DNA of 64,000 bases, taken from NCBI GenBank assembly GCA_041660065.1, contig JBAZXC010000002.1, forward strand, positions 170,620 to 234,619. Direction: 5' to 3'. The notes under the pieces are model-generated. The model was given only the letters and a program-made list of their open reading frames with translations. It was not told where the DNA came from and did not search any database. The stretch is from Parcubacteria group bacterium (GTDB lineage Bacteria; Patescibacteriota; Minisyncoccia; Moranbacterales; GCA-2747515). Both the position numbers and the translations under genes were made by a program. Below, one piece after another: positions 1,711-58,858 of this stretch (position 1 is the stretch's first letter; each line of letters opens with the position of its first letter).

Positions 1711-3441
1711 TTACATTTTTTTTATTTGCTCCACAAGTTCTTCCACATTGAATGGTTCACCATTCCATTTGAGAATGGTTTTATCTATCGCGATGTCACA
1801 TTCTTGTGTCAAAAGATGCGCAAATTGTCCCGTGGCATTGTTTTCCACAACAATTACTTTTTCCGCTTTTGCAAAGATCTTTTTGATCTTCTTTTTATCA
1901 AGAGGAAATAATTGCACAAAATGTACGACAGTCATATCCTGATTGCCGGCTTCACTCACCGCCTCAACAACCGTGTTGCGCGTCGATCCCCAGCATACGA
2001 TCAATTTTTTGCCGGATTTTTTACTGCGTCCCGTTGTAGTTTTTTGCGTAATAACTTCCGGCAAAAGCATCACTTCTTCAAGAAGAGCACGTCTTTTGAA
2101 GAGACGCTTTTCTGCCATGTGCATATGAATTCCACGTGTGTCCTCGGTAATACGACCGGTTTCATCATGCTCATCACCATCCACACACACCAATCCGTCA
2201 CCGAACCCCGGCACGCCACGCTCGCTTACACCATTTTCCGTAAGTGCATATCGCTTGTAATCGCGTGTTGTTTCTATAATATGTTTTACGTTGTTTTGTT
2301 CCACAAAATCATTTTTTTCAACTTTGTACAATGCATCCACAAAATACTGATCCGTAAGCACAAATGTCGGAATCTGATATTTATCGGCAATATCAAGTGC
2401 ATGCGCCGTGACAGCATATGCCTGCATCGGTGTACCGGGCGCAAAGATCGCTCGCATAAATTCCCCATGTCCCGCATGAAGCACGAGATTGAGATCTTCT
2501 TGTCCCGTGTGCGTTGGCAAACCGGTTGCCGGACCGGGACGTTGTCCGATATGAAACGTGATCGGTGTTTCGATCATTCCCGCCAGAGAAACCGCCTCGC
2601 ACATCAGATCAAACCCACCGCCGGACGTCGTCACAATACTTCGCGCACCGGCATATGAAGCACCTAGTGCCATATTGACTGCTTCGATCTCATCTGTTGC
2701 CTGCTCTACCACCGCACCACACTCCTTGCTGTTCTGTGCCAAAAAAGTCAAAAGCCCCGTTGACGGCGACATGGGATACGCCACACAAAAATCAACCCCT
2801 GCCGCAAGCGCCCCAAATCCCACAGCATCAATGCCAGACATGAAGAGGTCATCTTTGACTGCCTCTTTTGTTTTCATTGCAACATGCACATCGTGTGAAA
2901 AAGCGAAATGTGCACCCATTTTAAAACCTCGTGATAATGCCTCTTGATTTTTTGTAATGATATCCTTTCCCTTTTTTACAAAGAAATTGCGTAAATATTC
3001 ACGTGCATGCTTTTCATCTGCGCCGATCAATCCCAAAATCGCACCGGCCGCAACCGTATTAGCATAAAGAGTGCCACCAATCGACTGCGCAATGCTTATA
3101 AAATTCACTTCCATCACACAATCCTGGCAAAATTCCGCGTCACGAAACCCCAAAAACATCGTCTTATCATTAAAACGATGCTTATAAAAAGAAAATGACC
3201 GCGGATCAAGAGAAACGAAGAGATCGATCGTAGAACGAAATGCGTCTCTTTTTTCACTGGAAATACGAATGGTCGTGGAATTGATCCCGCCACGCACGCG
3301 CGACATGTATTCCGCCGTCGCAAAGACATGAAAGCCTTGTAATTTCAAAATGTGCGTCAGCAAATGCGCAACGCTCTGAATCCCTTGTCCGGCTTGCCCT
3401 GCGATCACGATCGAAAGATCATCTGTAATATGATGTGCCAT
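1711..3441 (-). CDS. korA: 2-oxoacid:ferredoxin oxidoreductase alpha subunit with fused N-terminal gamma domain
   Basis: N-terminal gamma-like domain (IVIAGQAGQGIQS) followed by alpha domain (TSGGGFDLM, pyruvate-flavodoxin oxidoreductase family signatures); 576 aa. Confidence 0.85.
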   Translation of the reverse strand: MAHHITDDLSIVIAGQAGQGIQSVAHLLTHILKLQGFHVFATAEYMSRVRGGINSTTIRISSEKRDAFRSTIDLFVSLDPRSFSFYKHRFNDKTMFLGFRDAEFCQDCVMEVNFISIAQSIGGTLYANTVAAGAILGLIGADEKHAREYLRNFFVKKGKDIITKNQEALSRGFKMGAHFAFSHDVHVAMKTKEAVKDDLFMSGIDAVGFGALAAGVDFCVAYPMSPSTGLLTFLAQNSKECGAVVEQATDEIEAVNMALGASYAGARSIVTTSGGGFDLMCEAVSLAGMIETPITFHIGQRPGPATGLPTHTGQEDLNLVLHAGHGEFMRAIFAPGTPMQAYAVTAHALDIADKYQIPTFVLTDQYFVDALYKVEKNDFVEQNNVKHIIETTRDYKRYALTENGVSERGVPGFGDGLVCVDGDEHDETGRITEDTRGIHMHMAEKRLFKRRALLEEVMLLPEVITQKTTTGRSKKSGKKLIVCWGSTRNTVVEAVSEAGNQDMTVVHFVQLFPLDKKKIKKIFAKAEKVIVVENNATGQFAHLLTQECDIAIDKTILKWNGEPFNVEELVEQIKKM

Positions 3442-9620: not shown

Positions 9621-11300
9621 TCACCAGCTTCCGCCACCACCGCCGCCAAATCCGCCACCCGATCCGCCACCGCTAAACCCCGATCCGCCGGAGCCTGCCG
9701 ATGACGGTTGCGAAACCATCGTGGCATTATTTGCATCGCTAAACGCGTGCAAACTATGTGCAAAAAGGATCGGTGAAAATGTTGCATCACCGCTTTCATA
9801 CCACTGTGGCTTTGTTTTATAAATATCCTCAAATTGTTTTGCCCATGCTTCTTCCACGCCGAGCACCATTGCATATGGCAACAACTTTTCAAATCGTTCC
9901 AGATTTTTTTCCGGCGCATTATGAAAATTGATCCGATCTTTTTCTGCTGTTTCCATATACAATTTCAACCCCAAAACCTGCTCACGAACGATCGCACCAT
10001 TTTTTGTCCGTTGTGGCATCACGATGCCAAAACTCAAAATAATAACGGATGAAAGAAATGTCGCTATGCCATAAGCAAGACCTGCCATACTGCCGGCAAT
10101 AAATGAACCGACAATAAGAAATATGCCGATCGTCACATATGTTGCGCGCACTATTGATGGCGTTCCCGTATAGTATCCCTTCTGCATGATCGCACCTTCT
10201 ATGCTTTTTTTGATTGCAACGAGATCCTTATAGAATTTTTCTTTAAGGTCTGACATCCTGCGCGTTTGCGCACCGCCAAAAATCGCATCAAATAATAATT
10301 TGTCTTGCTCGCTCACATCTGCAGAGCTCTTTCCTGTCTGCGTAAATTCATAATCCTCCGAAGAAAATACTCCTTTTTTGTCGATCTTTTTGATCGTGAG
10401 ATGGCCATTCACCGCCAGCTGGATGATCGCCGCAGAGACGCTCTTTGGTGCAACGGCATCTTCTGCGATCATCCCAACTTCCGCTGCCGTCAGACCTTCC
10501 GGCGCCTCGTAATATGGCACGATCGTCCCTTTACCTTCCGGATCACGCCCTTTGGTGTACCACAATCGCCACATGACTATAAGCACAAAAACAGGTAATC
10601 CAAAGATCCAATTGTCCATAAGATATTTGACGATCTTTTGTTGCAATGTCGGCTTGTACACTGTTCCGGCCGGCATGCCGATCACGGTTGTCACACCGGA
10701 ACCTGACACAAGATTTTCTTGCGCAAATGTCACTGTACGATCATTATTAGTGATCATGTCATCGCATGCGACTGTTGACCCATACGGTCCAGCAAAGCAT
10801 GCTGTTTTGCTGATCTGTGGTGCATGCACCGTTACCTGCACAGCCTTCATCAGCGCCGACCATCGATCTCCCGTTGCATTCCAATACAACTCGTCGTGAT
10901 CGTCAAAATAATTGATCGCGCCTGTGACCGTGTATGTGATCACATAAGTGTTCATACCTGTCACAAACTTATCCGCATTCCCAATCTTGATCTGCAGATT
11001 ATCCCCATCTCGTGCTGTGACAAATGTGTAGGGAACACCATATTGATCTGCGACAGTAATATGATCAAGTGTGATCGTACGATTATCATTTGTCGCATTG
11101 GTATATTTCACAGGAACATCACGATAGATCCCATGTCGCTGTGTCGTGCCATAATCATATTGGATCGTTTCTGCCACATCCACCGTTGCATCAGCATTGA
11201 TCGTCATATCTACATCATATGTTTTGATCTCCTCCGCACGTACGCTGAATATCGGCGCCAAAAGAAGCAGTCCTCCGAAGAAAAAGAATATTTTTTTCAT
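9621..11300 (-). CDS. DUF2207-family secreted/membrane protein with C-terminal Gly-rich tail
   Basis: Signal peptide MKKIFFFFGGLLLLAPIFSVRA, large extracytoplasmic domain, TM segments, C-terminal GGSGFSGGGSGGGFGGGGGGSW typical of DUF2207; alternative start at 11345. Confidence 0.65.
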   Translation of the reverse strand: MKKIFFFFGGLLLLAPIFSVRAEEIKTYDVDMTINADATVDVAETIQYDYGTTQRHGIYRDVPVKYTNATNDNRTITLDHITVADQYGVPYTFVTARDGDNLQIKIGNADKFVTGMNTYVITYTVTGAINYFDDHDELYWNATGDRWSALMKAVQVTVHAPQISKTACFAGPYGSTVACDDMITNNDRTVTFAQENLVSGSGVTTVIGMPAGTVYKPTLQQKIVKYLMDNWIFGLPVFVLIVMWRLWYTKGRDPEGKGTIVPYYEAPEGLTAAEVGMIAEDAVAPKSVSAAIIQLAVNGHLTIKKIDKKGVFSSEDYEFTQTGKSSADVSEQDKLLFDAIFGGAQTRRMSDLKEKFYKDLVAIKKSIEGAIMQKGYYTGTPSIVRATYVTIGIFLIVGSFIAGSMAGLAYGIATFLSSVIILSFGIVMPQRTKNGAIVREQVLGLKLYMETAEKDRINFHNAPEKNLERFEKLLPYAMVLGVEEAWAKQFEDIYKTKPQWYESGDATFSPILFAHSLHAFSDANNATMVSQPSSAGSGGSGFSGGGSGGGFGGGGGGSW

Positions 11301-12127: not shown

Positions 12128-13375
12128 TTAATGCAAGTGTCGATCTTTGTCACGTGTTTTTTTGTGAAAAGAGATGGCAAATCGATGCGCTTCCTCACGC
12201 ATGCTTTCCAACAACTCTTTATCGGTAATGATCGCATGATTGACTGGAAAAAATGCACTTTTATAGACATCGACCTTTTTACGCGTTGGCCCTTTGGCAA
12301 CTGCGATCACGGGAATATTTATATCTAGTTTTTGCCATAGATCATCCGCCATGTTGAGATGTCCTTTTCCGCCGTCCAAAACAATCAGCTGCGGTATGCC
12401 CCAATCATCGAGATGATTGAGCCGTCGCGCCAGCACTTCTCGCATCGCGCCCACATCATCGATCCCCTGCACAGACTGCACTTTGAATTTACGGTACTGA
12501 CTTTTATCCGCCACTCCGTTTATAAATACGATCATCGACGCAACCATCGCTTCCCCGCCGATATGTGAAATATCATATGCTTCCACACGCATCTCATGTG
12601 CACTAAATCGCGTAAATGCAATGTCCTTTTTCATCAGCGCAATATCATTGATATGTGTGAGTGCAAAGATCTGCCGTTTCACTTTGTCCGCTTCTTCGAA
12701 TTTTTCTTTTTTTGCCAAAGCGCGCATCTGCTTTTCCAACTTTTCGAGAAGTGCTTTCTTATGCCCGGAGAGAAAAAGCGCGATGTTGCGCATATTGCGT
12801 TTGTAGTCCGCCTCAGAGATCGCGCCGTCATACGGTCCGGGACACAGTCCCATTTGATAATGCAGACACCCTTTTTCACTCTGCTCACTGCGATCATGAA
12901 ATGGAAATATTCGGCGAATGATCTTAAGCGCGATCTTCATCTGATCGCGCGATGTATACGGACCATAAATTTTTCCCTTACGATACATCGCATCCTGAAA
13001 CTGTTCCTTATCAAAATCCGTCTGTCGTACGATCACAACACGCGGAAACCGTTCTTTGGTAATGACAAAAAAAGAAAAACTTTTATCATCTTTTCCGTCA
13101 ATATTATATTTTGGCTTATGCGTGCGGATTAGTTCCGCTTCAAGGATGAGCGCTTCAAGTACGCTATCGGTTTGAATTGTTTCAATGTCTGTTGCTTGCG
13201 CTACCAATCGTTCGATCCGCTCACCGCGCGTATCATGACCGGAAAAATATTGTCGCACGCGATCACGCAATGACGTCGCCTTGCCCACATACAACACCTC
13301 TCGTTTTGCACCACGAAAAAAATACACGCCGGGTGCTTTTGGCAATTCCGTTATTTTTTTCGCGTTATTTTTCAT
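12128..13375 (-). CDS. uvrC: excinuclease ABC subunit C, short form lacking C-terminal HhH domain
   Basis: N-terminal GIY-YIG (PGVYFFRGAKREVLYVGKATSLRDRV), UvrC RNaseH-like endonuclease region (GIPQLIVLDGGKGHLN); 415 aa vs ~600 typical. Confidence 0.8.
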   Translation of the reverse strand: MKNNAKKITELPKAPGVYFFRGAKREVLYVGKATSLRDRVRQYFSGHDTRGERIERLVAQATDIETIQTDSVLEALILEAELIRTHKPKYNIDGKDDKSFSFFVITKERFPRVVIVRQTDFDKEQFQDAMYRKGKIYGPYTSRDQMKIALKIIRRIFPFHDRSEQSEKGCLHYQMGLCPGPYDGAISEADYKRNMRNIALFLSGHKKALLEKLEKQMRALAKKEKFEEADKVKRQIFALTHINDIALMKKDIAFTRFSAHEMRVEAYDISHIGGEAMVASMIVFINGVADKSQYRKFKVQSVQGIDDVGAMREVLARRLNHLDDWGIPQLIVLDGGKGHLNMADDLWQKLDINIPVIAVAKGPTRKKVDVYKSAFFPVNHAIITDKELLESMREEAHRFAISFHKKTRDKDRHLH

Positions 13376-18010: not shown

Positions 18011-20878
18011 TCATTTCTTTAAAACCTCGCGCAAGAATTTTGCTGTGTAGCTTTCTTTGTAATATTTGATGACTTCTTCCGGAGAACCTGCAACAATAAT
18101 TTTTCCACCGCCAGATCCGCCCTCCGGACCCATGTCGATGATCCAGTCCGCTGTTTTGATCACATCCATATTGTGCTCGATCACCACCACGCTGTTCCCG
18201 CTTTCCACCAATCGATGCAAAACATCGAGCAATTTTGCCACGTCATCAAAGTGCAATCCCGTCGTCGGTTCATCGAGGATATACATCGTTTTGCCTGTTG
18301 CTTTGCGCGCGAGTTCCGTTGCCAGTTTTACACGTTGCGCCTCACCGCCACTGAGGGTTGTCGCACTTTGTCCGAGATGGATATATCCGAGCCCCACGTC
18401 TTGTAATGTCTTGATGATCGTATGGATCGCCGGATACGGCTCAAAAAAATCCACCGCCTCATCAACTGTGAGATCCAACACATCCGCGATCGTTTTGCCA
18501 CGATAGGTAATCTGCAATGTCTCGCTATTATATCGTTTACCTTTGCATACATCGCACGGCAAATACACATCCGCCATAAATTGCATCTCGATCTTGAGCG
18601 CACCATCACCATCACAATTGTCACATCGCCCGCCACGCACATTGAAACTAAATCGTCCCGGTTTATATCCCCGGGCTTTTGCCGCCTTTGTCTGCGCAAA
18701 TAATTCACGGATCGGTGCAAATACACCAGTATAAGTCGCTGGATTGGATCGTGGTGTGCGGCCGATCGGACTTTGGTCGATCAATATCACTTTATCGAGA
18801 TGCTCCACACCAACGATCTCTTGATACTTACCGGGACGCACTGCACTACGCATGAGCTTATGTGCCAATCCTTTATACAGGATTTCTTCAACAAGCGTTG
18901 ATTTCCCACTGCCAGATACGCCCGTGACCACTGTCATCATGCCCAAGGGAAATTCTACGGTGATCCCCTGCAAATTATTTTCTCTCGCACCACGTACTGT
19001 GAGGATCTTTTTATTTTTTATCAAACGTCGATGTTCTGGCACTGGAATGAATTTCTCACCGCGCAAATATTTTGCCGTCAAAGACTCTTTGTTTTGGATC
19101 ACTTTTTCCGGCACATCTGCCACAACGATCCGCCCACCGTGCTTACCTGCACCCGGACCGATATCAACGAGAAAATCCGCCGCACGCATCGTCTCCTCAT
19201 CATGCTCGATCACGATCACCGTATTGCCGAGATCACGTAAATACAGCAATGTTTCCAGAAGCTTTGAATTGTCACGCGCATGCAGTCCGATCGATGGCTC
19301 ATCGAGAATATACAACACACCCACCAACTGCGATCCGATCTGACTCGCCAGTCTGATGCGCTGTGATTCGCCACCGCTGAGTGTGTGCGCACTGCGCGCA
19401 AGCATCAAATATCCCAATCCCACTTTATTCAAAAAACTGAGCCGTGAGATCACTTCTTTAATGATCCGCTCACCGATGATCTTTTCTTGTGTGTTGAGTG
19501 GCAATTTTTCAAAAAATTGTACAGCGTCCGTGATCGTCATTTGCGATATTTCATCAATATGTTTTCCACCGATCTTGATCCACAAAACCTCTTGTTTGTA
19601 TCGACTGCCCTGGCACGCGCTACATGGTTTGCGCGACATATATTGTTCGATATCTTTACGAATACTATCTGATTCTGTTTTTTTGTACCGCTCTTCGAGA
19701 AACCCCACAATACCTTTCCATTCCACAGTAAAACGCCATGTGCTCCCTTTGGCACTTTTCATGCTCACAGGAATTGGATCTGGATCCTCATCGCCATGCA
19801 CCAAAACATCAAATTGTCGCTCGGCCAGATCTTTGAGACGCACATTTTCGGGAATGTGATAATATTGCAAAACGGCATGAAAGATCGCTCCATAGTATGA
19901 GTTTTTCTTTTTATTGCTCCACGGCAATACGCCGCCCTGTGCGATCGTTTTACTTGTATCAGGGATCACCATCGTGTAGTCGATTTCTTTTTTTGTACCC
20001 AAACCCTCACAGGCCGGACACGCACCATATGGCGAATTGAAACTGAAGAGGCGCGGCTCCAAATCGGGAAAAACGATCTTTGGATGGCGATGGCATGCAA
20101 ATTTTTGATTATATACAGTCACGGATTTTTTCTTTTTGTCATAAGGACGACGTACATATACCAATCCATCCGCGATCTTGAGCGAGATCTCCACAGCCTC
20201 AAAAAGCCGTGAGATTTCTTCCGCATCCGCCTTCATCGTATCTACGATGATCTCGATATTGTGTTTTTTATTGCGGTCCAATGCCAACTCACTGGCGGCA
20301 TCCAAATTGTGCACCTCTCCATTGATATATGCCTCGAGAAATCCCCTGTCCCACATATCGGAAAATAGTTTCAAATAGGTACCCTTGCGTGCGCGCACGA
20401 CAGGCGCACAAATTTCAATCTCCTCGCCTTGTGCATTTTCAATGATCTGCGCAACGATCTCATCGGTCGAGAGCACTGTGATCGGTTCATGACACTCCGG
20501 ACAATGTGGCACACCGATCTTTGCCCAGAGAAGACGCAGATAATCATGCACCTCTGTCACCGTCCCTACCGTAGAACGAGGATTGTGTGACGTCGTTTTC
20601 TGATCGATCGAAATCGCCGGCGACAATCCCTCGATCGTATCCACATCCGGTTTATCCATCTGCCCCAAAAACTGCCGCGCATAACTGGACAAACTCTCCA
20701 GATACCGTCGTTGACCTTCTGCAAAGATCGTATCAAACGCCAGTGTGGATTTCCCGCTTCCGGACAAACCGGTAAACACCGTAAAACTGTCTCGCGGAAT
20801 CGTGAGATTGATATTTTTGAGATTATTTTCTCGTGCGCCTTTGATGACAATATAGTCCGATTTATCTTTCATAGTCAT
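18011..20878 (-). CDS. uvrA: excinuclease ABC subunit A
   Basis: Two ABC ATPase modules with zinc-finger insertions ([13 protein letters not shown], CPxC motifs, LSGGE); ORF-track N-terminal 131 aa judged non-coding, start at [20 protein letters not shown]. Confidence 0.9.
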
Positions 20879-20881
20879 CAC

Positions 20882-20910
20882 AGTATAGATCATAAATGAT
20901 GATCTTTCAA
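20882..20910 (-). promoter_or_regulatory. uvrA promoter TTGAAA-N17-TATACT whose spacer is the palindrome GATCAT-N5-ATGATC (20888..20904); candidate LexA operator; leaderless or near-leaderless start
   Basis: Read on coding strand: TTGAAAGATCATCATTTATGATCTATACTGTGATG. Confidence 0.4.
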
Positions 20911-20984
20911 GTAATGATGAAATAATCATTGACAAAGACCTATCAAAATACACGTCTTTGCGAGGAATGCAGTGATAACGGAAT

Positions 20985-21043
20985 GACGAAGCAATCTCAC
21001 TAAAATATGCTGTTTTTCGTGCAGTGATCGAGATTGCTTCGTC
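20985..21043. repeat. 14-bp perfect inverted repeat GACGAAGCAATCTC / GAGATTGCTTCGTC with 31-nt loop upstream of uvrA
   Basis: Read from sequence; loop contains GCAGTGAT repeated at 20970 and 21022. Confidence 0.5.
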
Positions 21044-21095
21044 GCTACACTTCGTTCCGATCCTCGTAAAGACGAGACTAATAAGTCCACTATCT

Positions 21096-24538: not shown

Positions 24539-25525
24539 TTATTGTAGTATTAATTTATAATACCGAAACTTATTGATTGTGAGGATGTTATTATGATCCC
24601 GCACATGTCGACCGACATCACTATAAAAAATCACTAAACGTTCGCGATCCTTTTTGACGTACTCGATGATCTTTTCTGTCTCGAAAATTTCATGGATAAA
24701 GCCGTTTCCTTTTGCACATTCCAATCGTCGCTTGTATGACTGCGCATTTCTATCTGACAGATCCCCACCATCAACGATATACAGGTCATAACCGGAGAAA
24801 TTATCTCGGAAATTATCAACGATGTATTCCAGACGATTTTTGGGAAGCCTGTACAAAAATCTGTTTCCCTTTTTGTTCTTCATCTGCACCTGCTGAATGA
24901 GGATCCGCCGGTCATTCATGATTGAGAAGCCGATTGTCATAACATGCGTACCTTTATAGTGCACGAGAAAACCAAATATCCCATCCAAGAATGTGCGACT
25001 GTGTTTGGAATAACCATATTCATTATAGCCTGTAGTAAAATCAAGTCTTACAGAAAAATCCTTTGGTAGACCACGAAAAACAAATTCCGTCAGATGATCA
25101 TATGCATCGACCACTTCATTCCAAACATTACGACCACCACCATACAACCACATGGAACTCTGGATCTTCCGCACAAGATTATACCGATCATCACATTTAA
25201 AAAGATCCTCGACAGTAGTATGCATGTATCCAGATGAATATTCGATCTTGCACAACTCATCAAATGTAAAATGCTCAAATACCTCAAGCGGTAATTGATA
25301 AAAATTGCGCCAGAATTGAAAATCCTCGGGATCGCACAGATGATCAGCGATCAATTCTCGCTTACCTGCCAATTTTTTGGAAATATTGCGCAATGCGTAG
25401 ATCGGTTCTTTCCACCGCGGACTCACCTTGCGCAAACAACCTTTTACCTGTCCCAATTCAATGCCCACCATGAAAATCACCTCCTTTGTATATTTTGACA
25501 CATCTCTTTTATTTTTAAATAACAA
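24539..25525 (-). CDS. hypothetical protein
   Basis: ORF only. Confidence 0.4.
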   Translation of the reverse strand: MLFKNKRDVSKYTKEVIFMVGIELGQVKGCLRKVSPRWKEPIYALRNISKKLAGKRELIADHLCDPEDFQFWRNFYQLPLEVFEHFTFDELCKIEYSSGYMHTTVEDLFKCDDRYNLVRKIQSSMWLYGGGRNVWNEVVDAYDHLTEFVFRGLPKDFSVRLDFTTGYNEYGYSKHSRTFLDGIFGFLVHYKGTHVMTIGFSIMNDRRILIQQVQMKNKKGNRFLYRLPKNRLEYIVDNFRDNFSGYDLYIVDGGDLSDRNAQSYKRRLECAKGNGFIHEIFETEKIIEYVKKDRERLVIFYSDVGRHVRDHNNILTINKFRYYKLILQ

Positions 25526-35877: not shown

Positions 35878-38355
35878 TTATTCACTCCACAATTTAGCGA
35901 TCACATCTTTTGTTTTTTGTTCGTATATGTCGATGAGTTTTTTTGCTGATTCAACCAAAACACGTTCTGCTTCAATTTTTTCTACAATTAGTTTTTGATT
36001 TATTTTTGATGGCAAAGAAATTTTGATGGATCTAATAATTGGCATATTCAAACCACCTCTTTGATTTTCTCCGTTAATGTTTCTTATTTCTTGATATTTT
36101 TCTTTCAAAGAATATAATAAAAATTCTGAGATCAATTTATTTTCATCTGGATTTATAGAAACCAACGATTGATTACAAGCAGCTTCAGTTCTAAGAATGG
36201 CAATGGTCCCACGTGTCTTTCCTTGACCATTCAATGCTATCAAAACAGAGTTTTTTGGCAATAATCTAGCATTTGAATTATCTAATCCAAGCTGTGTAAT
36301 CCTACCTTCACAATCATAAATTTCCCCTCTATGGATATCACCAGAAACAAGCCACTTAATATCCCCATTATAATATTCTTTAATTGTGGATCGTGGAGTG
36401 CCTCCTGTCATGAGCGTAGAAACATCTCCAATCTTTACCTTTTTCCACTCTGGGTCAATTTCAATTTTTGGCTTCCAATTTTCTGTGATTTGTTTTGCGC
36501 CGGTGATGATTTTTTGATAGCCATCCAATTCTGCTACGATTTTTTCTTGGATTTCGAGAGGTGGAAGTGGAATTTTTGTTGATTTTAATTTTCCAAAATG
36601 TCTTTTGTACCCGTCAGATTCTATTGGATTTACTATTAAATAATAATACAAAAATTTTGGAAGCAATTTGTCATTTGTCTGCAAAATTTTAATACCATCT
36701 GCACCTTGAATAAAATTATTTTCAATATATTTAATTGCGCAGGTATGATCACCAAAAACAATCACTGGGTTTTGTACTGATATTATGGCATCTACATCAT
36801 CGCTCCAACCAGATATATTATCTTGAGATTGATCAATGACAGGATATCGACCATCACTTTTTATATCTTCTTTTTTTAATTTTTTTGGTGGAACAATCGT
36901 AAGTATTAAGTCTTCAATTTTTATCATTGGCCATTTTACATTTGTATAATCTACAGATTCAAAATAGCGATCGCCACTCAAATTATAATCTCCACTCTCC
37001 ACAATTTTAGATTTTTTAACGGCTGTTGCTATAGATTCCGGATCAAGTCCGGAATGACATGATGAAGGCATCGTTTGATTTTCTTTCCATGCATTTAAAA
37101 TTTCCACTGCACATGACAAATCATTTTTATCACTTGGTCTGCGCTGTGCGCCGAGATCAAAACCATCATTGGCGATTTTGACAAAAAGAATTTCGTCATT
37201 CGTTTCCTTTTTGGTCTTGTCAAAAAAGAGGATTGACGTCTTCACACCTGCATACGGATTAAAAACGCCACTCGGCAAACTTACCACAGCCCAAAGCCCT
37301 GCATCTTCTACAAGCTTCTCACGAATCGCTTTATGCGCACGAGCTGCCTGAAAAATCACGCCCTCTGGTACAATCACGCCACATCGCCCACGATCAGTCA
37401 GATGACGAATCATATAATTGAGAAAAAGCACTTCAGTCGCTCCTGTGTCCATCTGCAATTCTTCTGCCACTGCCGCACGATCGATCTTGCCCGCGAATGG
37501 TGGATTTGCCAATATGATATCCCATTTTGTCGTTTCCCCTTGCGTATCCACAAGTGAATTGCGTCGCTTAATCGTCGCATGTGGCAATTTATGAAAGTAT
37601 AAATTCATGAGACCGAATTTGATCATATCCGGATCACTGTCAAACCCCGTGAATGCTTGATTTTCCAAAAATTTCTGTTGTTTTCCTGTGAGGATATCCA
37701 TCGGAAATTTTCCCGCTTTTTTAAAATCATCAGTTGTGTACTTCTGTTTCAAATGATCCAATGCCGCAACAAGAAATCCGCCCGTACCACAGGCCGGATC
37801 ACAAATACTTTCTTCTGCCTTTGGATCGATGACGTCTACAATAAATTTGATAATATGTCTTGGTGTGCGGAACTGTCCTCCTGTGCCCGCTGATGCGATA
37901 CTGGAAAGCAAATATTCATAAAGATCGCCAAAAAGATCCGATCGTGTTGTTTTTTCTTCAGATTCTAGATCTGCCATCAATTCTTCGATTTTATGCACGA
38001 CTGTACGCAGTGCCGGTCTGGCAAAAAGTTTCACATGTGCTTTGTTGTAAAGCATCTTCACTGTTGGATTCGTTGTTTTTTCTGCAATTTTTTCAAAGGC
38101 ATCTCCCAAGTGTCCGAAAAGAGCATCTGCATTGAGACTGAGAATATTATCCCACTGATAAATTGCCAGCTCCCCACTTAAAACCGGTTTATATTTTTTG
38201 TCCAACAGTTTTTGCTCTTGATCATGCTTGTGTAGTTCGCGTAAAAAAATAATATAAATCATGAGTTCAATCACCGCCGTATGATTGGTAAGACCGCCAG
38301 CCCAAATGACATCCATAATGCTATTGATCTTGCTACGAAATTCTTGTAATGACAT
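35878..38355 (-). CDS. hsdMS: Type I R-M methyltransferase fused to specificity subunit (HsdM-HsdS single polypeptide, two TRDs)
   Basis: HsdM N-domain, motif I DPACGTGGF, motif IV LANPPFAG; C-terminal half has two target-recognition domains each ending in conserved LPPLEIQEKIVAELD / LPSKINQKLIVEKIE. Confidence 0.85.
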   Translation of the reverse strand: MSLQEFRSKINSIMDVIWAGGLTNHTAVIELMIYIIFLRELHKHDQEQKLLDKKYKPVLSGELAIYQWDNILSLNADALFGHLGDAFEKIAEKTTNPTVKMLYNKAHVKLFARPALRTVVHKIEELMADLESEEKTTRSDLFGDLYEYLLSSIASAGTGGQFRTPRHIIKFIVDVIDPKAEESICDPACGTGGFLVAALDHLKQKYTTDDFKKAGKFPMDILTGKQQKFLENQAFTGFDSDPDMIKFGLMNLYFHKLPHATIKRRNSLVDTQGETTKWDIILANPPFAGKIDRAAVAEELQMDTGATEVLFLNYMIRHLTDRGRCGVIVPEGVIFQAARAHKAIREKLVEDAGLWAVVSLPSGVFNPYAGVKTSILFFDKTKKETNDEILFVKIANDGFDLGAQRRPSDKNDLSCAVEILNAWKENQTMPSSCHSGLDPESIATAVKKSKIVESGDYNLSGDRYFESVDYTNVKWPMIKIEDLILTIVPPKKLKKEDIKSDGRYPVIDQSQDNISGWSDDVDAIISVQNPVIVFGDHTCAIKYIENNFIQGADGIKILQTNDKLLPKFLYYYLIVNPIESDGYKRHFGKLKSTKIPLPPLEIQEKIVAELDGYQKIITGAKQITENWKPKIEIDPEWKKVKIGDVSTLMTGGTPRSTIKEYYNGDIKWLVSGDIHRGEIYDCEGRITQLGLDNSNARLLPKNSVLIALNGQGKTRGTIAILRTEAACNQSLVSINPDENKLISEFLLYSLKEKYQEIRNINGENQRGGLNMPIIRSIKISLPSKINQKLIVEKIEAERVLVESAKKLIDIYEQKTKDVIAKLWSE

Positions 38356-38358
38356 TTT

Positions 38359-40779
38359 TTATATTTTTAATATTTTACTTGTGGCAATATCTTCCGCCAT
38401 TTCGATCAGTTCTTCCTCTTTAAATCGTTCTAACCATTCACCCGGTCTATACACGTTAAATGGTGGCTCTGATAAAAATGACACATTTCTCTCCTGTGCA
38501 GATCGCACCACTTTCTCACGCAATTCATCGTTGGTCGTCATCTTGGCAAAAATCAGTCGTGACATCAATGTGCGCTCTTGATCCGCACCTGGCTCTATAC
38601 CGTATTTTTGTACCATATCCTCCATCCATTGATCTCTCTGCGAATCACGCGTTGGAAGCTCTTCCTTGCCCAGTGCACTGAGTACAAAATTACGAATGGA
38701 TACAATTACACCAAAACCTTCTTGCAATTTATCTTCTGAAAAATATTCTTTTGGTTTGTTAAATACGTGTTCATCCAAAAATAGACTCAACTCTGCCTCA
38801 CGCTCTTCATCTTCTGCCATCTTGAGAACTTCCCCATTTTCTGCGACAATTTCTTGAATTGCTTTGGTCCATGCGGATTGATACATGTTTTTGTCCACTG
38901 CATCACCATCGGGACCAACCGTCATTTTATCCCTGGTAAGCACAGCATCATCATCGTTGCTCACAATTGGTGTAAATGGCGACGGCGTTTCAGTTCCACC
39001 ATCGCCAATAACTCCCTCACCTCTGCCACCTGTCACCGTAGCCCCCTTTAATATTAATGGGGTTTTGAGTGGCGCTTCCCAATCATATTTTTCTTCAAAG
39101 TATTCCACAACACCGCAAAAATCAAAAATCGTAAAAAACTCTTTTTTAAAATCTTTACCATCATGGTGAAACGTGTACAAACGTGTGCCGCGTCCCTTAA
39201 TTTGCTGATATGAGGTTGTTTCAAAAATCGGTCGTGCAAGTACGATATTGAGAACTTCCGGACAGTCAAAACCTGTGGTGAGCATATCTACTGATACCGC
39301 AACACGCATACGTTGATTTTCTGGATCCTTGAATTCTTTGGCGATTTGTTGTGCATTCATCACACTACTCGTAATTGTTTTGGCAAATTGTCCACCATAT
39401 GCCGGCATCATCTCATTGAGAATTTTTTCCAACTTCAGTGCATGCCGCTGTGATACCGCAAAAATAATCGACTTGCCAATTTCTCCATCAGGTGCTTTAT
39501 TGGCATTATCGAGAAATTCCTGCATCATCGTGCGGTTCGTTTTTTCCAAATAGACCTTCTTTTCCAAATCTCGAATTGTAAAGGATTCGCCCTTTGCCTC
39601 GGATACTTCCAAACCCTCTGGACTAAGTGCCTTTTGCGTAAGCACCGTGTTCATTTTGTGAAATCGTGGACCGACAAGAAATGGCCCCTGTGAATCGCCA
39701 ATGCCATCTTGAATAGTATAACGATATGTTGCCACACCATCCGCACATCCAAAAAACTTATATGTATCTCTCTGAAGACGTTTTTCAAATGCACGCGGAT
39801 CATCTATTTGTAATTGTGATTCATCAATATTTTTGAGAAAGTCTTTCGGTGTGGCAGTGAGACCAACTTTTGTCGCTCCGTAAAAACGATCTGTTGCAGC
39901 ACGTGCTTGTGCAGAATATATACTGCGGTGTGCCTCATCATGAATAATTAAATCAAAATACCCCGGTGAAAAATAATCTTCGCCATTCTTAATCATGCTT
40001 TGAATTGTTGCCACCACAACATTTGCGCCAACAATATTATTGCGTGCACTTCCCCAAAATGTGGCAATGGATGATAAATCACCTAAAATTGGTTCGAATG
40101 CCCCCTTGGTTTGTGTAGCAAGTGTAATACGGTCTACAAGAAAGAGAACATTTTGCGCCTGGTGTGTTTCTAAAAATTTGCGAATAAGCGCAGCCGCAAG
40201 TCCAGTCTTACCCGTCCCCGTTGCCATCTCCAAAAGAAATGCTCTTTTGCCGGCATCATATCCTTCGGCAATTGTATTGATTGCTTCTACTTGATAATGG
40301 CGCAATGAAAAATTACTCGGATCAACTCTTTGTAAATAGTCTGGTGTGATCGGATTGCGCGTAAGTGGCACTACATTACCCATCGTATCAGCATTTCTTT
40401 TGCGCTCAAGATCCCGTTGTGTATAAAATTCATTTACTTGAATCGCATCTCCTTTGGTAATATCCCAAAAATAAATAACGTGATCATTTGCCAAATAAAT
40501 ATATTGGATTTTTCCTTTATACTGAGCATCCACATAATTTAACGCCTGTTGTTTGGCGCTATACGGATCAATTTCTGGTGCCTTTGCTTCAATAAGCGCT
40601 AATGGTTGTCCAGATGAGTTTTTCAAAATATAATCCGATCGTCCTGCAACGCCATGATCTTCAAAAATAACTTGTTGAAAACTTTCAATATCCCATTTGG
40701 CATCCCGCAATTTTCTATCAATAACAACACGTGAAAAAGCTTCACTCATAGATATAACATCATAATATAACTCTTTCAT
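38359..40779 (-). CDS. hsdR: Type I restriction enzyme R subunit
   Basis: N-terminal PD-(D/E)XK (DYIL...EAK), helicase motif I ATGTGKT, motif II DEAH; start set at MKELYY. Confidence 0.85.
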   Translation of the reverse strand: MKELYYDVISMSEAFSRVVIDRKLRDAKWDIESFQQVIFEDHGVAGRSDYILKNSSGQPLALIEAKAPEIDPYSAKQQALNYVDAQYKGKIQYIYLANDHVIYFWDITKGDAIQVNEFYTQRDLERKRNADTMGNVVPLTRNPITPDYLQRVDPSNFSLRHYQVEAINTIAEGYDAGKRAFLLEMATGTGKTGLAAALIRKFLETHQAQNVLFLVDRITLATQTKGAFEPILGDLSSIATFWGSARNNIVGANVVVATIQSMIKNGEDYFSPGYFDLIIHDEAHRSIYSAQARAATDRFYGATKVGLTATPKDFLKNIDESQLQIDDPRAFEKRLQRDTYKFFGCADGVATYRYTIQDGIGDSQGPFLVGPRFHKMNTVLTQKALSPEGLEVSEAKGESFTIRDLEKKVYLEKTNRTMMQEFLDNANKAPDGEIGKSIIFAVSQRHALKLEKILNEMMPAYGGQFAKTITSSVMNAQQIAKEFKDPENQRMRVAVSVDMLTTGFDCPEVLNIVLARPIFETTSYQQIKGRGTRLYTFHHDGKDFKKEFFTIFDFCGVVEYFEEKYDWEAPLKTPLILKGATVTGGRGEGVIGDGGTETPSPFTPIVSNDDDAVLTRDKMTVGPDGDAVDKNMYQSAWTKAIQEIVAENGEVLKMAEDEEREAELSLFLDEHVFNKPKEYFSEDKLQEGFGVIVSIRNFVLSALGKEELPTRDSQRDQWMEDMVQKYGIEPGADQERTLMSRLIFAKMTTNDELREKVVRSAQERNVSFLSEPPFNVYRPGEWLERFKEEELIEMAEDIATSKILKI

Positions 40780-40887
40780 TCTACCCCCTATCCCACCAAA
40801 AATCAAAAAAATGGCTTTTTTATGGTGTTTTTTTTGGTGTTGCTATTTATTTCATTTTATCATGATGCTCTTTTGATAACATATACC

Positions 40888-40985
40888 AGATTGCTACACC
40901 CAACTCAAAGAGGGCTCGCAATGACAATGGGAGATTGCTACACCCACTCAAGGAGAACTCGCGATTGGCGATGGGAGATCACTTA
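40888..40985. repeat. 44-bp tandem repeat, 2.2 copies (AGATTGCTACACCCAACTCAAAGAGGGCTCGCAATGACAATGGG)
   Basis: Read from sequence upstream of hsdR. Confidence 0.6.
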
Positions 40986-41128
40986 CTAAGAGATACGAGG
41001 AGTGGCTATGTGTGTATTGAAATACACTTTTTACATGGCACATTTCACACATATTGAGATTTTTGCTATGATATCTATAAATAATTGCACCATCACCATT
41101 AGATCATCATACTATTGAGGAGGATTTC

Positions 41129-41441: not shown

Positions 41442-41732
41442 ATGCAGAGCATCACATCACGTGACATTATCAGCACAAAGTACACCATCATAGATGGCAA
41501 ATCAGTCATCCTCATCTTGCTTGTGAAGTTGCCCCTGGTCAGACTACCTCTTGAACGAACTACATGGCTTGTTGACAAATCTGCACCGACCAATAGCGTT
41601 GAAATCTCAGAAGAGCCCAATCAAGGAACCGCAGAATGTGATTTTACCATTGTAGGTGACACGATGGAAACATTGCGCGCATTTGGACATCAGATTCTCA
41701 CCGACTCATTTAATGAAATATTGTGGAGATAA
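41442..41732 (+). CDS. 96-aa hypothetical protein (module copy 1)
   Basis: Paralog of 45647..45937 (~35% aa identity, shared C-terminal ..FARQILTD.F); own SD and terminator. Confidence 0.45.
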   Translation: MQSITSRDIISTKYTIIDGKSVILILLVKLPLVRLPLERTTWLVDKSAPTNSVEISEEPNQGTAECDFTIVGDTMETLRAFGHQILTDSFNEILWR

Positions 41733-41959
41733 CCTGGACTCTCCCCTATCGCCACAACCGACGACATGTCTATACATGTTGTCGGTTTTTATTTTTTATT
41801 AATTTATGTTAATTGTCTTTTTTTAATAATGTATCACTGTACGCCCCCCCTTGCATGCTCATGATAACAATTATTATTACTCCTTGACTAATTTTTGAAT
41901 ATAAAAAAGCGTGACCCTCATTAAGTCACGCCTACTTTGATATTTGCAGAGATTTCTGC

Positions 41960-43558: not shown

Positions 43559-44545
43559 TCATTTTCCATTCAATAATAACAATATCAGTCCGATCATGCG
43601 ATCTTTGTCGCGTGGTTTTGATTCTGCCACAAGCAGTGTGATCGTGGTAAGTGATTCCGGCGTGATCTTTTTTTGGAAATCAATACCCGTTTTGTGCAAA
43701 AACCACACAAATGCAAATGCGCCCGTACGCTTATTGCCATCGTTAAACGGGTGATTTTTCACGACAAAATATAGTAGATGTGCAGCTTTTTCTTCAATAC
43801 TCGGATACATATCAGCGCCAAACGCTGATTGCAAAACGTTACCCAATATACCTTCAAGATTTTTTTCTTGTTTTTCTTGTGCAAACAGATCCGATGCTTG
43901 TTTTTTGGCAATCAAATCTTTCTTTAAATCACCTACAGCACTGTACAAATCACTCGCACGCAGTGATACATCTTTTTTTGTTACACCCTTGTGTGGCAAC
44001 CGATCTTCATCATAGGCTTCCAATGAAAACCATGTACCGGCAAATGTTTTGATCAGTTCCAAAATATCATCTGTTTTGATCGTATGATCTTTTGGTAGCA
44101 GCTTTTGTACGTGTTCTACCGCTGTGAGAAAATTGTCATAATTTTTGCCAATCCGTTGCGGATTGATGAGATATCCTTTTGTGATATATTGTCCGAGAAT
44201 TTTATTAGCCCAACGTCTAAACTCAATTGCGCGAACAGAATTTGTTCTATATCCAACCGCTAAAATAATATCCAAGTTATAGAAATTCACTGTCCTAGTT
44301 TGCATTTTCCCCTCTATCGCTCCGTGTTTTGTGGTATGTGCAAAATTTGCACATACCACTTTCTGATCAAGTTCTTTATCAGAAAAGATGTTTTTAATAT
44401 GTTTGACAATCACAGTTCTATCAACATCAAAAATCTCGGCAATTTGTTTTTGTGTTGCCCAAATTGTTTCATTATCAAAATCCTCACGAAGTTCTATTGC
44501 TCCGTTTTTTGCTTGATAAATTGCCAATTGTTTCTTGTTTGCCAT
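43559..44545 (-). CDS. RhuM-family N-domain fused to Fic/Doc domain protein
   Basis: Fic motif HPFNDGNKRTG; N-terminal ~130 aa resemble virulence protein RhuM family. Confidence 0.75.
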   Translation of the reverse strand: MANKKQLAIYQAKNGAIELREDFDNETIWATQKQIAEIFDVDRTVIVKHIKNIFSDKELDQKVVCANFAHTTKHGAIEGKMQTRTVNFYNLDIILAVGYRTNSVRAIEFRRWANKILGQYITKGYLINPQRIGKNYDNFLTAVEHVQKLLPKDHTIKTDDILELIKTFAGTWFSLEAYDEDRLPHKGVTKKDVSLRASDLYSAVGDLKKDLIAKKQASDLFAQEKQEKNLEGILGNVLQSAFGADMYPSIEEKAAHLLYFVVKNHPFNDGNKRTGAFAFVWFLHKTGIDFQKKITPESLTTITLLVAESKPRDKDRMIGLILLLLNGK

Positions 44546-45487: not shown

Positions 45488-45646
45488 TCGCTCAAACGAC
45501 CAATAGCTCTCTACGGAGACAGGATGCAACATCACCTGTCTCTATTTTTTTGGCGTTGTGTATTTTTCAATTGTGATATACAATGACTCATCGCGTTATT
45601 TAACAGTTTTTTTTGGAAAAACCCCTACATTTCGGAGGAGTATTTC

Positions 45647-45937
45647 ATGATAAAAATCACTACGGACGATATCATCAACACAAAGTGCATCATCACGGGT
45701 GACAAAGTAACCGTCCTCATCATCCACCTGAAAGGTAAGGTGCTAAAAATTCCCCTTGATAATACCATGTGGATCACTACAAATAAAATGCCGGAAAATA
45801 CAGTTTTGATCGCGTCAAAAGAACCCAACGATGAATCTGCTGAACGCACTTTCATCATTGCGAGCTCTTCGGTCGAATACTTGCACGAATTTGCACGTCA
45901 AATTCTTACTGACACATTTGATCCAAACGAATTCTAA
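45647..45937 (+). CDS. 96-aa hypothetical protein (module copy 2)
   Basis: Paralog of 41442..41732; followed by terminator CGACGACATGTGTAGACATGTGTCGG-like hairpin + T-run. Confidence 0.45.
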   Translation: MIKITTDDIINTKCIITGDKVTVLIIHLKGKVLKIPLDNTMWITTNKMPENTVLIASKEPNDESAERTFIIASSSVEYLHEFARQILTDTFDPNEF

Positions 45938-50969: not shown

Positions 50970-51584
50970 TTAATGCTTTTTTTTGAATTTATCAAAACTA
51001 ATCCTATATTCAAAATCCTCAGCAAACAAAACTTCCTTTACCACGCCAAGTTTCTGCATATCAAAAACTTCTCGCCCCACATGATTCCTCGCACCAAAAA
51101 CATAACATTCTTTTTGATATTCTTCATACATATATTTTATCGCATACATCAAATCCCCATCACCTGAAAACAAAATTACCGTATCATAATTATCTCTTTC
51201 TTTTATCAAATCGACTGCCATTTCCACATCAAGATCACATTTTTTTTCAAACCCATATTTGTTATCATCGCTATGAATATATTTTACTCTTTTTTGAACA
51301 ACATCAAACCCACTCATTTTTGCCTTTTCAAGAATCAATCGTGACCAGCTAATTAAATTGGTTGATTTTTCATTTTCACCATAATCAGCGCCATAATAGA
51401 ATCTTCTTAAAAATTTTTTTCCAGTTGAAAAGTTCTTACAAAGCTGTGCAAGCTCTTTGATACCAACTCTCCATATCAAACTATGTTTCCATTTTTCTAT
51501 ATTTCCATAGTCAACAATTATCAATGTCTTCTCTTTTTTATTAGAAAATGAATCTACAAATTTTTTGATTTCGTCTTTTGTCAT
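50970..51584 (-). CDS. NYN/LabA-like (PIN-like) domain protein
   Basis: LIIVDYGN...DLDVEMAVDLI...ILFSGDGDL. Confidence 0.65.
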   Translation of the reverse strand: MTKDEIKKFVDSFSNKKEKTLIIVDYGNIEKWKHSLIWRVGIKELAQLCKNFSTGKKFLRRFYYGADYGENEKSTNLISWSRLILEKAKMSGFDVVQKRVKYIHSDDNKYGFEKKCDLDVEMAVDLIKERDNYDTVILFSGDGDLMYAIKYMYEEYQKECYVFGARNHVGREVFDMQKLGVVKEVLFAEDFEYRISFDKFKKKH

Positions 51585-51601: not shown

Positions 51602-52282
51602 TTATTTTTTATGCGTGCTGTGTGTTGCTGGCAATACTTTGCGAAACACGCCGGCAATGAGGATCTGATCCGACTCATCGAGATAGATCGGCTGATGTTT
51701 CGGGTTGGTCGACTGCGGGAATAAGCCAATCATATGCCCTCTGAGCTTTCGATATTTTTTGATCGTCGCCATGCCATTGATCACCGCCACAACAATCTTT
51801 CCTTCGAGATCCTCGCCATTGTCATACTTGGCAAACACGACATAATCATTGTCATTGATATCCGCTTTATTCATCGAATCCCCCAACGCTTTCACGGCGA
51901 ATAGTTGTGCCGGTTTTTCTTTGCGAAAAAGGCTCGTGGATACTTGCACATACCCCTCCACATTATTATCCGCAAACGCCAATGCTTCTCCGCATGACGC
52001 AAGTCCAAATGTCGGAATGGAAAAAATATTCTCGAGATCGGAGAATGACTCATTTTTCACCATATAGATCTTTCTTTTATCATCACGCTTGATGAGCCCC
52101 TTCTTCTCCAGTGCTTCCACCACTTGTACCGTGCCTTTGAGCGCACCAACGTCATGTCCTTCTTCCTGCAATGTTGCATGCACTTTGTATGCGGTTGGAT
52201 TATGTGATCCCTGCTCAATGATCTCGCGAATCGTCTCCAAGATCACATGTTGTTTGCGTGTGAGTTCTTGCGTCTTTTGCAT
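51602..52282 (-). CDS. lexA: LexA repressor
   Basis: N-terminal wHTH, S24 peptidase domain with ALGDSM (Ser) and K dyad; start at MQKTQ. Confidence 0.85.
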   Translation of the reverse strand: MQKTQELTRKQHVILETIREIIEQGSHNPTAYKVHATLQEEGHDVGALKGTVQVVEALEKKGLIKRDDKRKIYMVKNESFSDLENIFSIPTFGLASCGEALAFADNNVEGYVQVSTSLFRKEKPAQLFAVKALGDSMNKADINDNDYVVFAKYDNGEDLEGKIVVAVINGMATIKKYRKLRGHMIGLFPQSTNPKHQPIYLDESDQILIAGVFRKVLPATHSTHKK

Positions 52283-52305
52283 ATTTTTTATTTTTATGTA
52301 ATTAT

Positions 52306-52340
52306 AGTGATATAGTATCATCATCGTATATCACTGTCAA
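52306..52340 (-). promoter_or_regulatory. lexA promoter TTGACA-N17-TACTAT overlapped by inverted repeat AGTGATATA-N12-TATATCACT; candidate SOS operator
   Basis: Read on coding strand: TTGACAGTGATATACGATGATGATACTATATCACT. Confidence 0.45.
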
Positions 52341-52506
52341 TAATTTCACGTGACAAATGTAAAATCCCCCTTTTCCCCCCTTTGCCAAAGGGGGAGGGGC
52401 GTTGACTTTCCGAGAACTTTATGTTATAATAGCCTGTTGTGTTTCATTAACAATCCCGAGAGGGATATATACGCCTGAGAAGGCATCCTAGAGACAGGAG
52501 GAAAAA

Positions 52507-57829: not shown

Positions 57830-58858
57830 TCAAATATGCAATAGCGCATGATCCAATTTTAATGCAATTTTTGTTTTCAATCGATGTGTATTTCCATGGC
57901 TCAACAACCCTTCATATGAACGCCATCTTTTCAGTGTCGCATTTTTCCTCATCCGTCGCACCATCCTCTTTTTCGTCTTCGTCCGCAAGATCCGATGATC
58001 AGAAAAGATGATCATCCCGAGAAAATCCACACCGGATGAGAGGGTTTTGATAAAAACCTTGTCCGGATGCATTTCCAGTCGTAATTCTTCCCACAAAAAG
58101 TTCTCTATGGCTGGAATATCATTCTCCAACTGTTTTTTGTTTGTGGCTAAGAATACAAAATCATCCGCGTAACGAATATAGTATTTTGCTTTCATTGTAT
58201 GTTTTGCAAACTGATCGAATTTGTTCATATAAATATTCACAAATAATTGTGAAGTCAGGTTGCCCAGCGGAAGTCCGATTTTCCTCTCTTTCCTGTGGTA
58301 CGGTTGAAATGACGAGAAACTCTCTATGATGTTTTCAAGAAGTGTGATGATATTTTTGTCCGGAATATATTCGGAGAGAATTTTTAATAAAATATCATGG
58401 TCGATATTTGCAAAGAATTTTTTGATGTCGCATTTCAAAACCCAACATGTTTTTGTGTTATTTTGACTGACTTTATGAAAATATTTTTTAAATCTATTGA
58501 TTGCTTTATGGGTTCCTTTATCATTTCTGCATGAATACGAATCAGCGATAAATGTTTTGTCAAAAAACGGATAGAGTTTTCTATAGATTGCATGATGCAA
58601 AAGCCGATCACGCACGATAGCTTTGTGGATGTTTCTTGGTTTGGGATCGTTGATTTTGAACGCTTGATAACCGCCGTGTTTATAGGTAAAATTACAGAGA
58701 TCATTGTGAAGCAAAAAGATGTGATCCATGAGTCTCAAGGAAAATTCCTGCACGTCCTTCCTGTTTCTCTTTCCTTTTTCAAATTCTTTCCATGCTTCCA
58801 ACAAGTTTTCTACACTGATAATATCATCATACGTATGAATCAATTGAATTTTCATCAT
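57830..58858 (-). CDS. diversity-generating retroelement reverse transcriptase
   Basis: RT motifs incl. YADD (IRYADDFVFL) and DGR-type motif 4 GLPLGNLTSQLFVNIYM (SQ instead of SP); 342 aa, no maturase/endonuclease domain; adjacent Avd, TR and VR. Confidence 0.8.
   Translation of the reverse strand: MMKIQLIHTYDDIISVENLLEAWKEFEKGKRNRKDVQEFSLRLMDHIFLLHNDLCNFTYKHGGYQAFKINDPKPRNIHKAIVRDRLLHHAIYRKLYPFFDKTFIADSYSCRNDKGTHKAINRFKKYFHKVSQNNTKTCWVLKCDIKKFFANIDHDILLKILSEYIPDKNIITLLENIIESFSSFQPYHRKERKIGLPLGNLTSQLFVNIYMNKFDQFAKHTMKAKYYIRYADDFVFLATNKKQLENDIPAIENFLWEELRLEMHPDKVFIKTLSSGVDFLGMIIFSDHRILRTKTKKRMVRRMRKNATLKRWRSYEGLLSHGNTHRLKTKIALKLDHALLHI

Follow-up and report, generated by a model that had tools for sequence, protein, structure and literature searches.

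A conserved dyad over the lexA promoter as the probable autoregulatory operator of a Moranbacteria-type LexA

The 64-kb stretch of DNA that was analysed as a whole (hereafter the window) is from a Candidatus Moranbacteria (Moraniibacteriota) genome, within the Patescibacteria of the candidate phyla radiation. At 51602..52282 on its minus strand lies a gene for LexA, the textbook example of a regulator that has acquired new binding motifs many times in its evolution. The promoter of this gene is overlapped by inverted repeats, and the features of the locus to which the text refers are as follows, with half-sites given in gene orientation.

51602..52282, minus strand: lexA coding sequence (226 amino acids plus stop), examined by Pfam, by alignment to Escherichia coli LexA and by an AlphaFold (AF2) model
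52306..52312, minus strand: half-site C, TATCACT, just downstream of the -10 hexamer and one arm of the 9-N12-9 repeat
52306..52322, no strand assigned: putative core operator dyad, GATGATA-CTA-TATCACT, for which the family consensus is AGTGATA-N3-TATCACT
52312..52317, minus strand: -10 hexamer of lexA, TACTAT, with a 17-nt spacer and a TG upstream, at the centre of the dyad
52316..52322, minus strand: half-site B, GATGATA, degenerate at its first two positions and containing the TG of the extended -10
52329..52335, minus strand: half-site A, AGTGATA, abutting the -35 hexamer and forming the other arm of the 9-N12-9 repeat
52335..52340, minus strand: -35 hexamer of lexA, TTGACA, conserved in relatives

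Based on its Pfam domains, full-length alignment, structural model and PDB matches, the product of 51602..52282 is a genuine LexA, combining a winged helix-turn-helix (HTH) with an S24 peptidase and keeping every LexA hallmark. Pfam assigns Peptidase_S24 (PF00717) with a score of 68 bits; LexA_DNA_bind reaches 25.1 bits against a cut-off of 23.7, a weak match that is explained by a 5-residue insertion separating helix 2 from helix 3. The protein aligns with E. coli LexA from end to end, with Cys97-Gly98 falling on the E. coli Ala84-Gly85 cleavage site and Ser136 (in GDSM) and Lys175 (in TIKKY) falling on the catalytic dyad of S119 and K156; Ser136 and Lys175 are invariant across 43 family members, and Cys97-Gly98 is likewise invariant in the family. 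A Cys-Gly cleavage site is the form found in UmuD. The AlphaFold model (mean pLDDT 66, approximately 75-83 over much of both domains and below 50 in the linker) contains three helices (residues 9-25, 31-40 and 48-60) and a beta hairpin ahead of a C-domain rich in beta structure, and its best PDB matches in Foldseek are full-length LexA (3JSP, 3K2Z and 1JHH) and the LexA DNA-binding domain (1LEA).

Downstream of lexA, a gene with a Pfam NYN domain (50970..51584, minus strand) starts 17 nt past the lexA stop, and neither a terminator nor a promoter is predicted within that 17-nt gap. The NYN gene is probably co-transcribed with lexA and would therefore be under the same operator, although the pairing is specific to the window genome and is not conserved in the relatives examined. 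As to the wider setting, a type I restriction-modification pair, a Fic/RhuM-domain gene and an RVT_1 reverse transcriptase gene lie near lexA, such mobile or defence-type genes being located at 35878..40806, 43559..44545 and 57830..58858, and two paralogous small ORFs (41443..41733 and 45628..45937) each follow a similar hairpin. These neighbours suggest a stretch rich in defence or mobile elements.

The original prediction drew attention to AGTGATATA-N12-TATATCACT over the lexA promoter spacer and -10, and that palindrome is indeed there: AGTGATATA (52306..52314) and TATATCACT (52327..52335) are exact 9-nt inverted copies of each other, 12 nt apart, and they lie across a minus-strand lexA promoter of the sigma-70 type. 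By itself the repeat is unremarkable, since the window holds approximately 25 separate loci with perfect inverted repeats (9 nt or more per arm, loop up to 20 nt), corresponding to 61 overlapping arm-pair matches versus 8.7 in first-order Markov simulations. The lexA element is set apart from chance by being conserved in all 12 orthologous promoters. Between the lexA promoter and a TTGACT-17-TATAAT sequence (52402..52430), within the otherwise A+T-rich divergent promoter region, there is also a G+C-rich hairpin (CCCCCTTTGCCAAAGGGGG, with flanking G/C runs) at 52362..52396; the equivalent place in relatives is occupied by the ordinary terminator of the upstream gene.

The comparison comprised 12 independent lexA promoters whose LexA proteins are 65-100 % identical (65-86 % for the 11 besides that of the window), including three (L001-L003) from a species-level genome collection in which the closest LexA loci are labelled Moraniibacteriota and eight (L020, L022, L024, L026, L029, L034, L035 and L036) found as homologues. 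A metagenome scan with the LexA alignment yielded distant relatives only. The intergenic DNA around these promoters is unalignable apart from the conserved element, within which TGATA and TATCA are unchanged in all 12, always with the same N3 between the heptamers (TGATA-N5-TATCA). In every promoter compared, the dyad AGTGATA-N3-TATCACT is centred on the -10 hexamer, and a -10 equivalent, TAnnnT, occurs at the same place in every relative. Half-site A is fused to the -35 in 10 of the 12 promoters and is absent in L020 and L029. Additionally, the L022 promoter has a second full tandem site (19 bits) directly downstream, and L020, L026 and L029 have a further TATCACT or AATCACT at the start codon, giving heptamer copies in both orientations, which are better explained by a protein recognition element than by a promoter element. 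The layout of dyad plus -35 heptamer is conserved across the loci of the LexA subfamily compared, whatever the neighbours, being found in at least four different gene neighbourhoods; lexA lies beside a divergent unknown gene in the window, RNase III in L022, adenylosuccinate lyase in L034, and ftsA-ftsZ ... nrdR-nrdD in L020, L024, L026, L029 and L036. Thus, the proposal of a lineage-specific LexA box fares well insofar as a candidate lexA operator is conserved (12/12), but the conserved unit is AGTGATA-N3-TATCACT together with the -35 heptamer and not the 9-N12-9 repeat, so that the palindrome recovered by comparison is in part a different and tighter one.

The 9-N12-9 repeat joins the extra heptamer A to the far half (C) of the dyad, a pairing to be expected from the letters alone, as half-site B is degenerate at two positions whereas A is perfect. 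It is unlikely that this repeat, or alternatively the A-B direct repeat, is the functional unit, bound by two LexA dimers or by one dimer in the direct-repeat mode that has been reported in other LexA lineages. In the window and in L001-L003 the 9-nt arms pair without a mismatch, and A is present in most of the promoters; however, the arms are imperfect in L022, L024, L026 and L035, the two promoters that do without A keep a perfect B-C dyad, and the A-B distance varies (12, 13 or 14 bp), tracking the length of the promoter spacer, whereas B and C are separated by N3 in 12/12. Moreover, the centres of A and C are 22-23 bp apart, which is too far for one dimer of known LexA geometry (3JSO complex). 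Covariation between the 9-nt arms of A and C was considered as a sign of a hairpin and rejected, as it holds in L002 and L003 and fails in L022, L024, L026 and L035; the likeness of the arms is better explained by the 8-nt half-site consensus, AGTGATAT. Sanchez-Osuna, Barbe and Erill reportedly studied the LexA network of the Patescibacteria (Environ Microbiol 19:3465, 2017). In PMC7739468, which came later from that group, the study is placed among cases of direct-repeat recognition by LexA, a remark that would allow for the A-B direct repeat, rather than the B-C dyad, being the bound unit; the study is also cited in PMC8565304. Within the dyad-centred reading, half-site A is probably a secondary or co-operative site.

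Since half-site B overlaps the extended -10 consensus TGnTAnnnT, part of the conservation of the left half-site is promoter conservation. That the entire element reflects promoter architecture (an extended -10 and a discriminator) or an RNA/DNA hairpin, with no repressor involved, is nonetheless very unlikely. While the left half coincides with TGnTAnnnT and the region as RNA would fold with an energy of -9.3 kcal/mol (z = -3.3), the TATCAC(T) that follows the -10 does not belong to any promoter element and is missing from other extended -10 promoters of the same genomes, such as that of nrdR (TGTGGTATAAT), the exact dyad symmetry extends over 7-8 nt in 12/12, and heptamer copies occur elsewhere in the same promoters. 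The hairpin, furthermore, spans the promoter, and half of it lies upstream of the transcription start and would therefore be missing from the RNA. The lexA operator region has no match in Rfam.

With regard to the identity of the bound protein, all Moranbacteria LexA proteins that accompany the dyad have nearly the same recognition helix, LKGTVQV(V/I)EALEKK (one has M for V), and this helix is preceded by the 5-residue insertion in the HTH turn. The insertion is missing from E. coli LexA and from the other Patescibacteria LexA compared, except L010, and the helix-3 sequence differs in E. coli LexA and in the other Patescibacteria LexA (Dojkabacteria/WS6-type, L010-L013, L019). The other Patescibacteria lexA promoters carry different repeats, e.g. 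GTATAC copies in the Dojkabacteria/WS6-type loci and TACATA-N6-TATGTA in L010. A lineage-specific helix is thus paired with a lineage-specific operator, as is expected if LexA is the protein that binds the dyad. Recognition of the dyad by a different transcription factor would be compatible with the single site seen per genome region and with a link between LexA and the site that is drawn from sequence. Yet the site accompanies lexA in four or more unrelated neighbourhoods (divergent unknown gene, RNase III, ftsZ and adenylosuccinate lyase), no regulator gene other than lexA is a constant neighbour, the LexA recognition helix hardly varies over the same set, and the site is distinct from the NrdR boxes at neighbouring nrdR promoters, all of which make a different factor quite improbable. 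A LexA box at nrdR/nrdD beside lexA in relatives was also considered and rejected, only NrdR boxes and an extended -10 being present there. The nrdR promoters (L020 10740..10810; L024, L026 and L029) have TGTGGTATAAT and then paired NrdR-box-like palindromes (ACACAACATATAGT...), and the ribonucleotide reductase cluster beside lexA appears to be NrdR-regulated and not LexA-regulated.

On balance, the dyad at lexA is probably the autoregulatory operator of a Moranbacteria-type LexA that acts by promoter occlusion. The anatomy and conservation of the element can be read from the promoters themselves, and from them we infer binding, co-operativity and induction. A LexA dimer would bind the B-C dyad over the -10, where the centres of the two half-sites are about one helical turn apart, and a second LexA contact may occur at the -35 heptamer, possibly adding co-operativity. 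LexA at both dyad and heptamer would exclude RNA polymerase from the -10 and the -35; by analogy, a position over these two hexamers is the classic geometry of LexA autorepression, and a dyad over the -10, conserved in 12/12 orthologous promoters and presumably bound by the gene's own product, is the own-promoter operator feature of a LexA. Upon DNA damage, RecA filaments would trigger LexA self-cleavage at Cys97-Gly98 by Ser136/Lys175, and the promoter so freed would permit the induction of lexA and the co-transcribed NYN gene.

An operator matrix built from nine lexA sites gave 26.9, 20.1 and 23.2 bits, at the same position, for the L034, L035 and L036 promoters, which are outside the matrix set. 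In the window, the lexA site scores 23.0 bits and the next best match in the 64 kb scores 10.0 bits; across the window and approximately 0.4 Mb of fetched, partly redundant loci, scores of at least 19 bits occur only in lexA promoters. Weaker matches are either extended -10 promoters, since TGnTATAAT is similar to the left half of the motif, or coincidences within coding sequence. Several of the weaker matches were rejected as further sites, those at 41823, 45572 and 25608 being extended -10 promoters or single half-sites, with 25608 and 45572 in the first class, and those at 24616 and 48661 being inside coding sequence; codons for EVIKYH account for a 12-bit match in L030 and L031 where uvrA has its 3' end. 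Within the available sequence, the dyad box is seen only at lexA and no second regulon member was found, the link to DNA damage coming from the identity of LexA. A search with E. coli RecA found no recA in the window or in any fetched locus, and there is no translesion polymerase among the approximately 50 window ORFs run through Pfam. Just downstream of lexA in L034, a weak dyad (CTTGATATAGTATCATT, 12.9 bits, 10712..10745) lies over the TTGACA promoter of a gene for a 119-aa product of unknown function, and no other candidate for a second target was seen.

The nucleotide excision repair genes of the window had also been proposed to carry the operator, and their features are as follows.

12128..13375, minus strand: uvrC
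18011..20878, minus strand: uvrA
20882..20910, minus strand: uvrA promoter, TTGAAA-17-TATACT, with a matrix score of -5.4 and not part of the LexA operator system

That one non-canonical SOS box is common to lexA, uvrA and uvrC, forming a classical regulon that includes nucleotide excision repair, now seems highly improbable. ATGAT/ATCAT-rich strings do occur in all three regions, lexA and uvrC share ACAGTG...ACGATGAT...CTATAT when two gaps are allowed, and ATCATCGTA is present 3 times in the window versus 0.84 expected. Against the lexA-operator matrix, however, the upstream regions of uvrA and uvrC score -5.4 and -11.5 bits versus 23 for lexA, and the common strings need different gaps and have opposite orientations relative to the genes. 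The uvrA string was found just as described, i.e. TTGAAA-GATCATCATTTATGATC-TATACT at 20882..20910 with the -10 three nt from an ATG, but the half-sites of its palindrome point the opposite way (ATCA...TGAT, versus TGAT...ATCA at lexA). Moreover, GATCAT-N5-ATGATC in the uvrA spacer is unique to the window, being absent in the syntenic loci L030, L031 and L032, where the promoter itself is conserved as TTGAAA/TTGATA, 17 nt, TATACT/TATAAT and then nnnATG(A/G)CTATGAAA, with ATGACTATGAAA conserved along with the -35 and -10. The window contains 50 perfect 6-N5-6 palindromes versus approximately 22 expected; the uvrA palindrome is unremarkable. At uvrC, where the minus strand reads TTTACAGTGCTACGATGATCTATATTT-ATG, the strings of the claimed gapped resemblance to the lexA upstream region are present, but the match needs two gaps and the uvrC upstream region has no conservation in the relatives compared. 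The pattern ATCATCAT-NN-TAT-N-ATC, which was said to be common to the lexA and uvrA spacers, matches neither site as written; a match appears only with different gap lengths for each site, on the antisense strand of lexA and the sense strand of uvrA, and ATCATCAT alone occurs 19 times in the window.

The uvr comparison used syntenic loci containing both uvrA and uvrC, one of which has, in addition, uvrB and another uvrA; L030 and L002 derive from one genome and L033 and L020 from another, the lexA box being known in both. Upstream of uvrA, uvrB and uvrC in these relatives, including the two genomes that have the lexA box, there is no match of at least 9 bits. Judged by sequence comparison, the resemblances of uvrA and uvrC to the lexA site are due to chance and are not conserved in relatives. 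With no operator at the window uvrA and uvrC or at the relatives' uvrA, uvrB and uvrC, these DNA-repair genes appear to be outside LexA operator control within the available sequence. In practice, the operator is now defined more precisely, and of the three regulon members that had been proposed, two are dropped.

The uvrA region has features of its own. ATG(ACT) follows the -10 after 3 nt and ATGAAA follows it after 9 nt (20866..20910, minus strand), an arrangement that is conserved in L030, L031 and L032 (around 9944..10013) and that implies a leaderless or near-leaderless uvrA mRNA. Translation of uvrA probably begins at the second ATG (20872); a public gene call places the start 17 codons farther upstream. 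The upstream intergenic region (20930..21095) is filled by an imperfect palindromic repeat element (GACGAAGCAATCTC ... GAGATTGCTTCGTC, with the ends TTGCGAGGA / CCTCGCAAAGACG) that looks like a REP/MITE-like family, and related repeat words are present at 40890..40990 of the window and upstream of lexA in the relative L002 (about 2840..2930).

LexA-binding motifs differ between phyla (PMC4951493), and 17 of them have been counted (PMC8565304). Among eight published LexA box types, none occurs upstream of lexA, uvrA or uvrC. This agrees with the original prediction as regards the three boxes that it named: the E. coli-type CTGT-N8-ACAG (gammaproteobacterial SOS box) and the Cheo box GAAC-N4-GTTC (Firmicutes/Actinobacteria) have 0 matches in the whole window, and the alphaproteobacterial direct repeat GTTC-N7-GTTC has 1 window match, which is not upstream of any of the three genes. 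The LexA described here resembles that of E. coli (3JSO/3JSP) in its architecture, fold, catalytic Ser/Lys and cleavage-site glycine, and the two lexA promoters are alike in having a dyad operator over the gene's own promoter and more than one copy of the site. In contrast, the E. coli operator is CTGT-N8-ACAG versus TGATA-N5-TATCA here, the E. coli cleavage site is Ala-Gly versus Cys-Gly, E. coli LexA is without the 5-residue HTH-turn insertion, and E. coli uvrA is a classical SOS gene whereas the window uvrA carries no box.

Other lineages provide further parallels. The boxes of Firmicutes/Actinobacteria LexA (DinR) and of the Verrucomicrobia are likewise short palindromes in which a small spacer of fixed length separates the arms; the Verrucomicrobia box, TGTTC-N4-GAACA, occurs as tandem sites in lexA promoters, with documented cases of a full site plus a degenerate or partial neighbour (PMC4951493), which is akin to the conserved full site plus partial neighbour of the lexA promoter here. 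The monomer, however, is GAAC/TGTTC in those boxes versus GTGATA here, and the spacer here is odd (N3). Short, lineage-specific dyads with odd spacers (N3 and N5), found by footprinting of lexA promoters, are known in Bdellovibrio (TTAC-N3-GTAA) and the Bacteroidetes (CTAA-N5-TTAG and GGA-N5-TCC) (PMC8565304), but these differ in sequence, and the Bacteroidetes regulators have a lambda-CI-like HTH versus the LexA winged HTH here. Closest in taxonomy is the 2017 Patescibacteria study, which concerns the same superphylum and the same question and whose motif is described in a citing paper as a direct-repeat type; an A-B heptamer direct repeat (12-14 bp) does occur in 10/12 Moranbacteria promoters, but the invariant pair here is inverted with a fixed N3. 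In sum, AGTGATA-N3-TATCACT is unlike the eight published types tested and may provisionally be regarded as a further LexA box, its conserved pair being inverted with a rigid N3 whereas the direct-repeat pair is variable in spacing.

A more far-reaching reading, which is offered tentatively and is somewhat doubtful, is that a LexA with an enlarged HTH turn reads an undescribed box, that the SOS circuit of these reduced genomes has contracted almost to an autoregulatory loop plus variable downstream cargo (here, the NYN nuclease gene), and that the nucleotide excision repair genes are constitutive, with uvrA leaderless. If true, a new motif in an uncultured, genome-reduced lineage, together with a change in the HTH turn, would be a data point on the co-evolution of protein and operator, and the definition of the operator would make the Moranbacteria DNA-damage regulon predictable from metagenomes alone.

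The lexA surroundings in more distant relatives offer some additional observations. In these, lexA is situated within ftsA-ftsZ-lexA-nrdR-nrdD-nrdG, with a perfect DnaA-box-like 9-mer on either side of it (TTATCCACA / TGTGGATAA), the 9-mers being located at 9790..9800 and 10680..10690 in L020 and at equivalent places in L024, L026, L029 and L036; the window has no such 9-mer. Finally, L020 contains a ~130-bp element with 20-nt terminal inverted repeats (CCCGGTAGTGAAACTTCAAC / GTTGAAGTTCTACTACCGGG) at 9868..10000, inserted exactly at the ancestral lexA start codon, such that the operator and promoter are now 174 nt from the present ATG.
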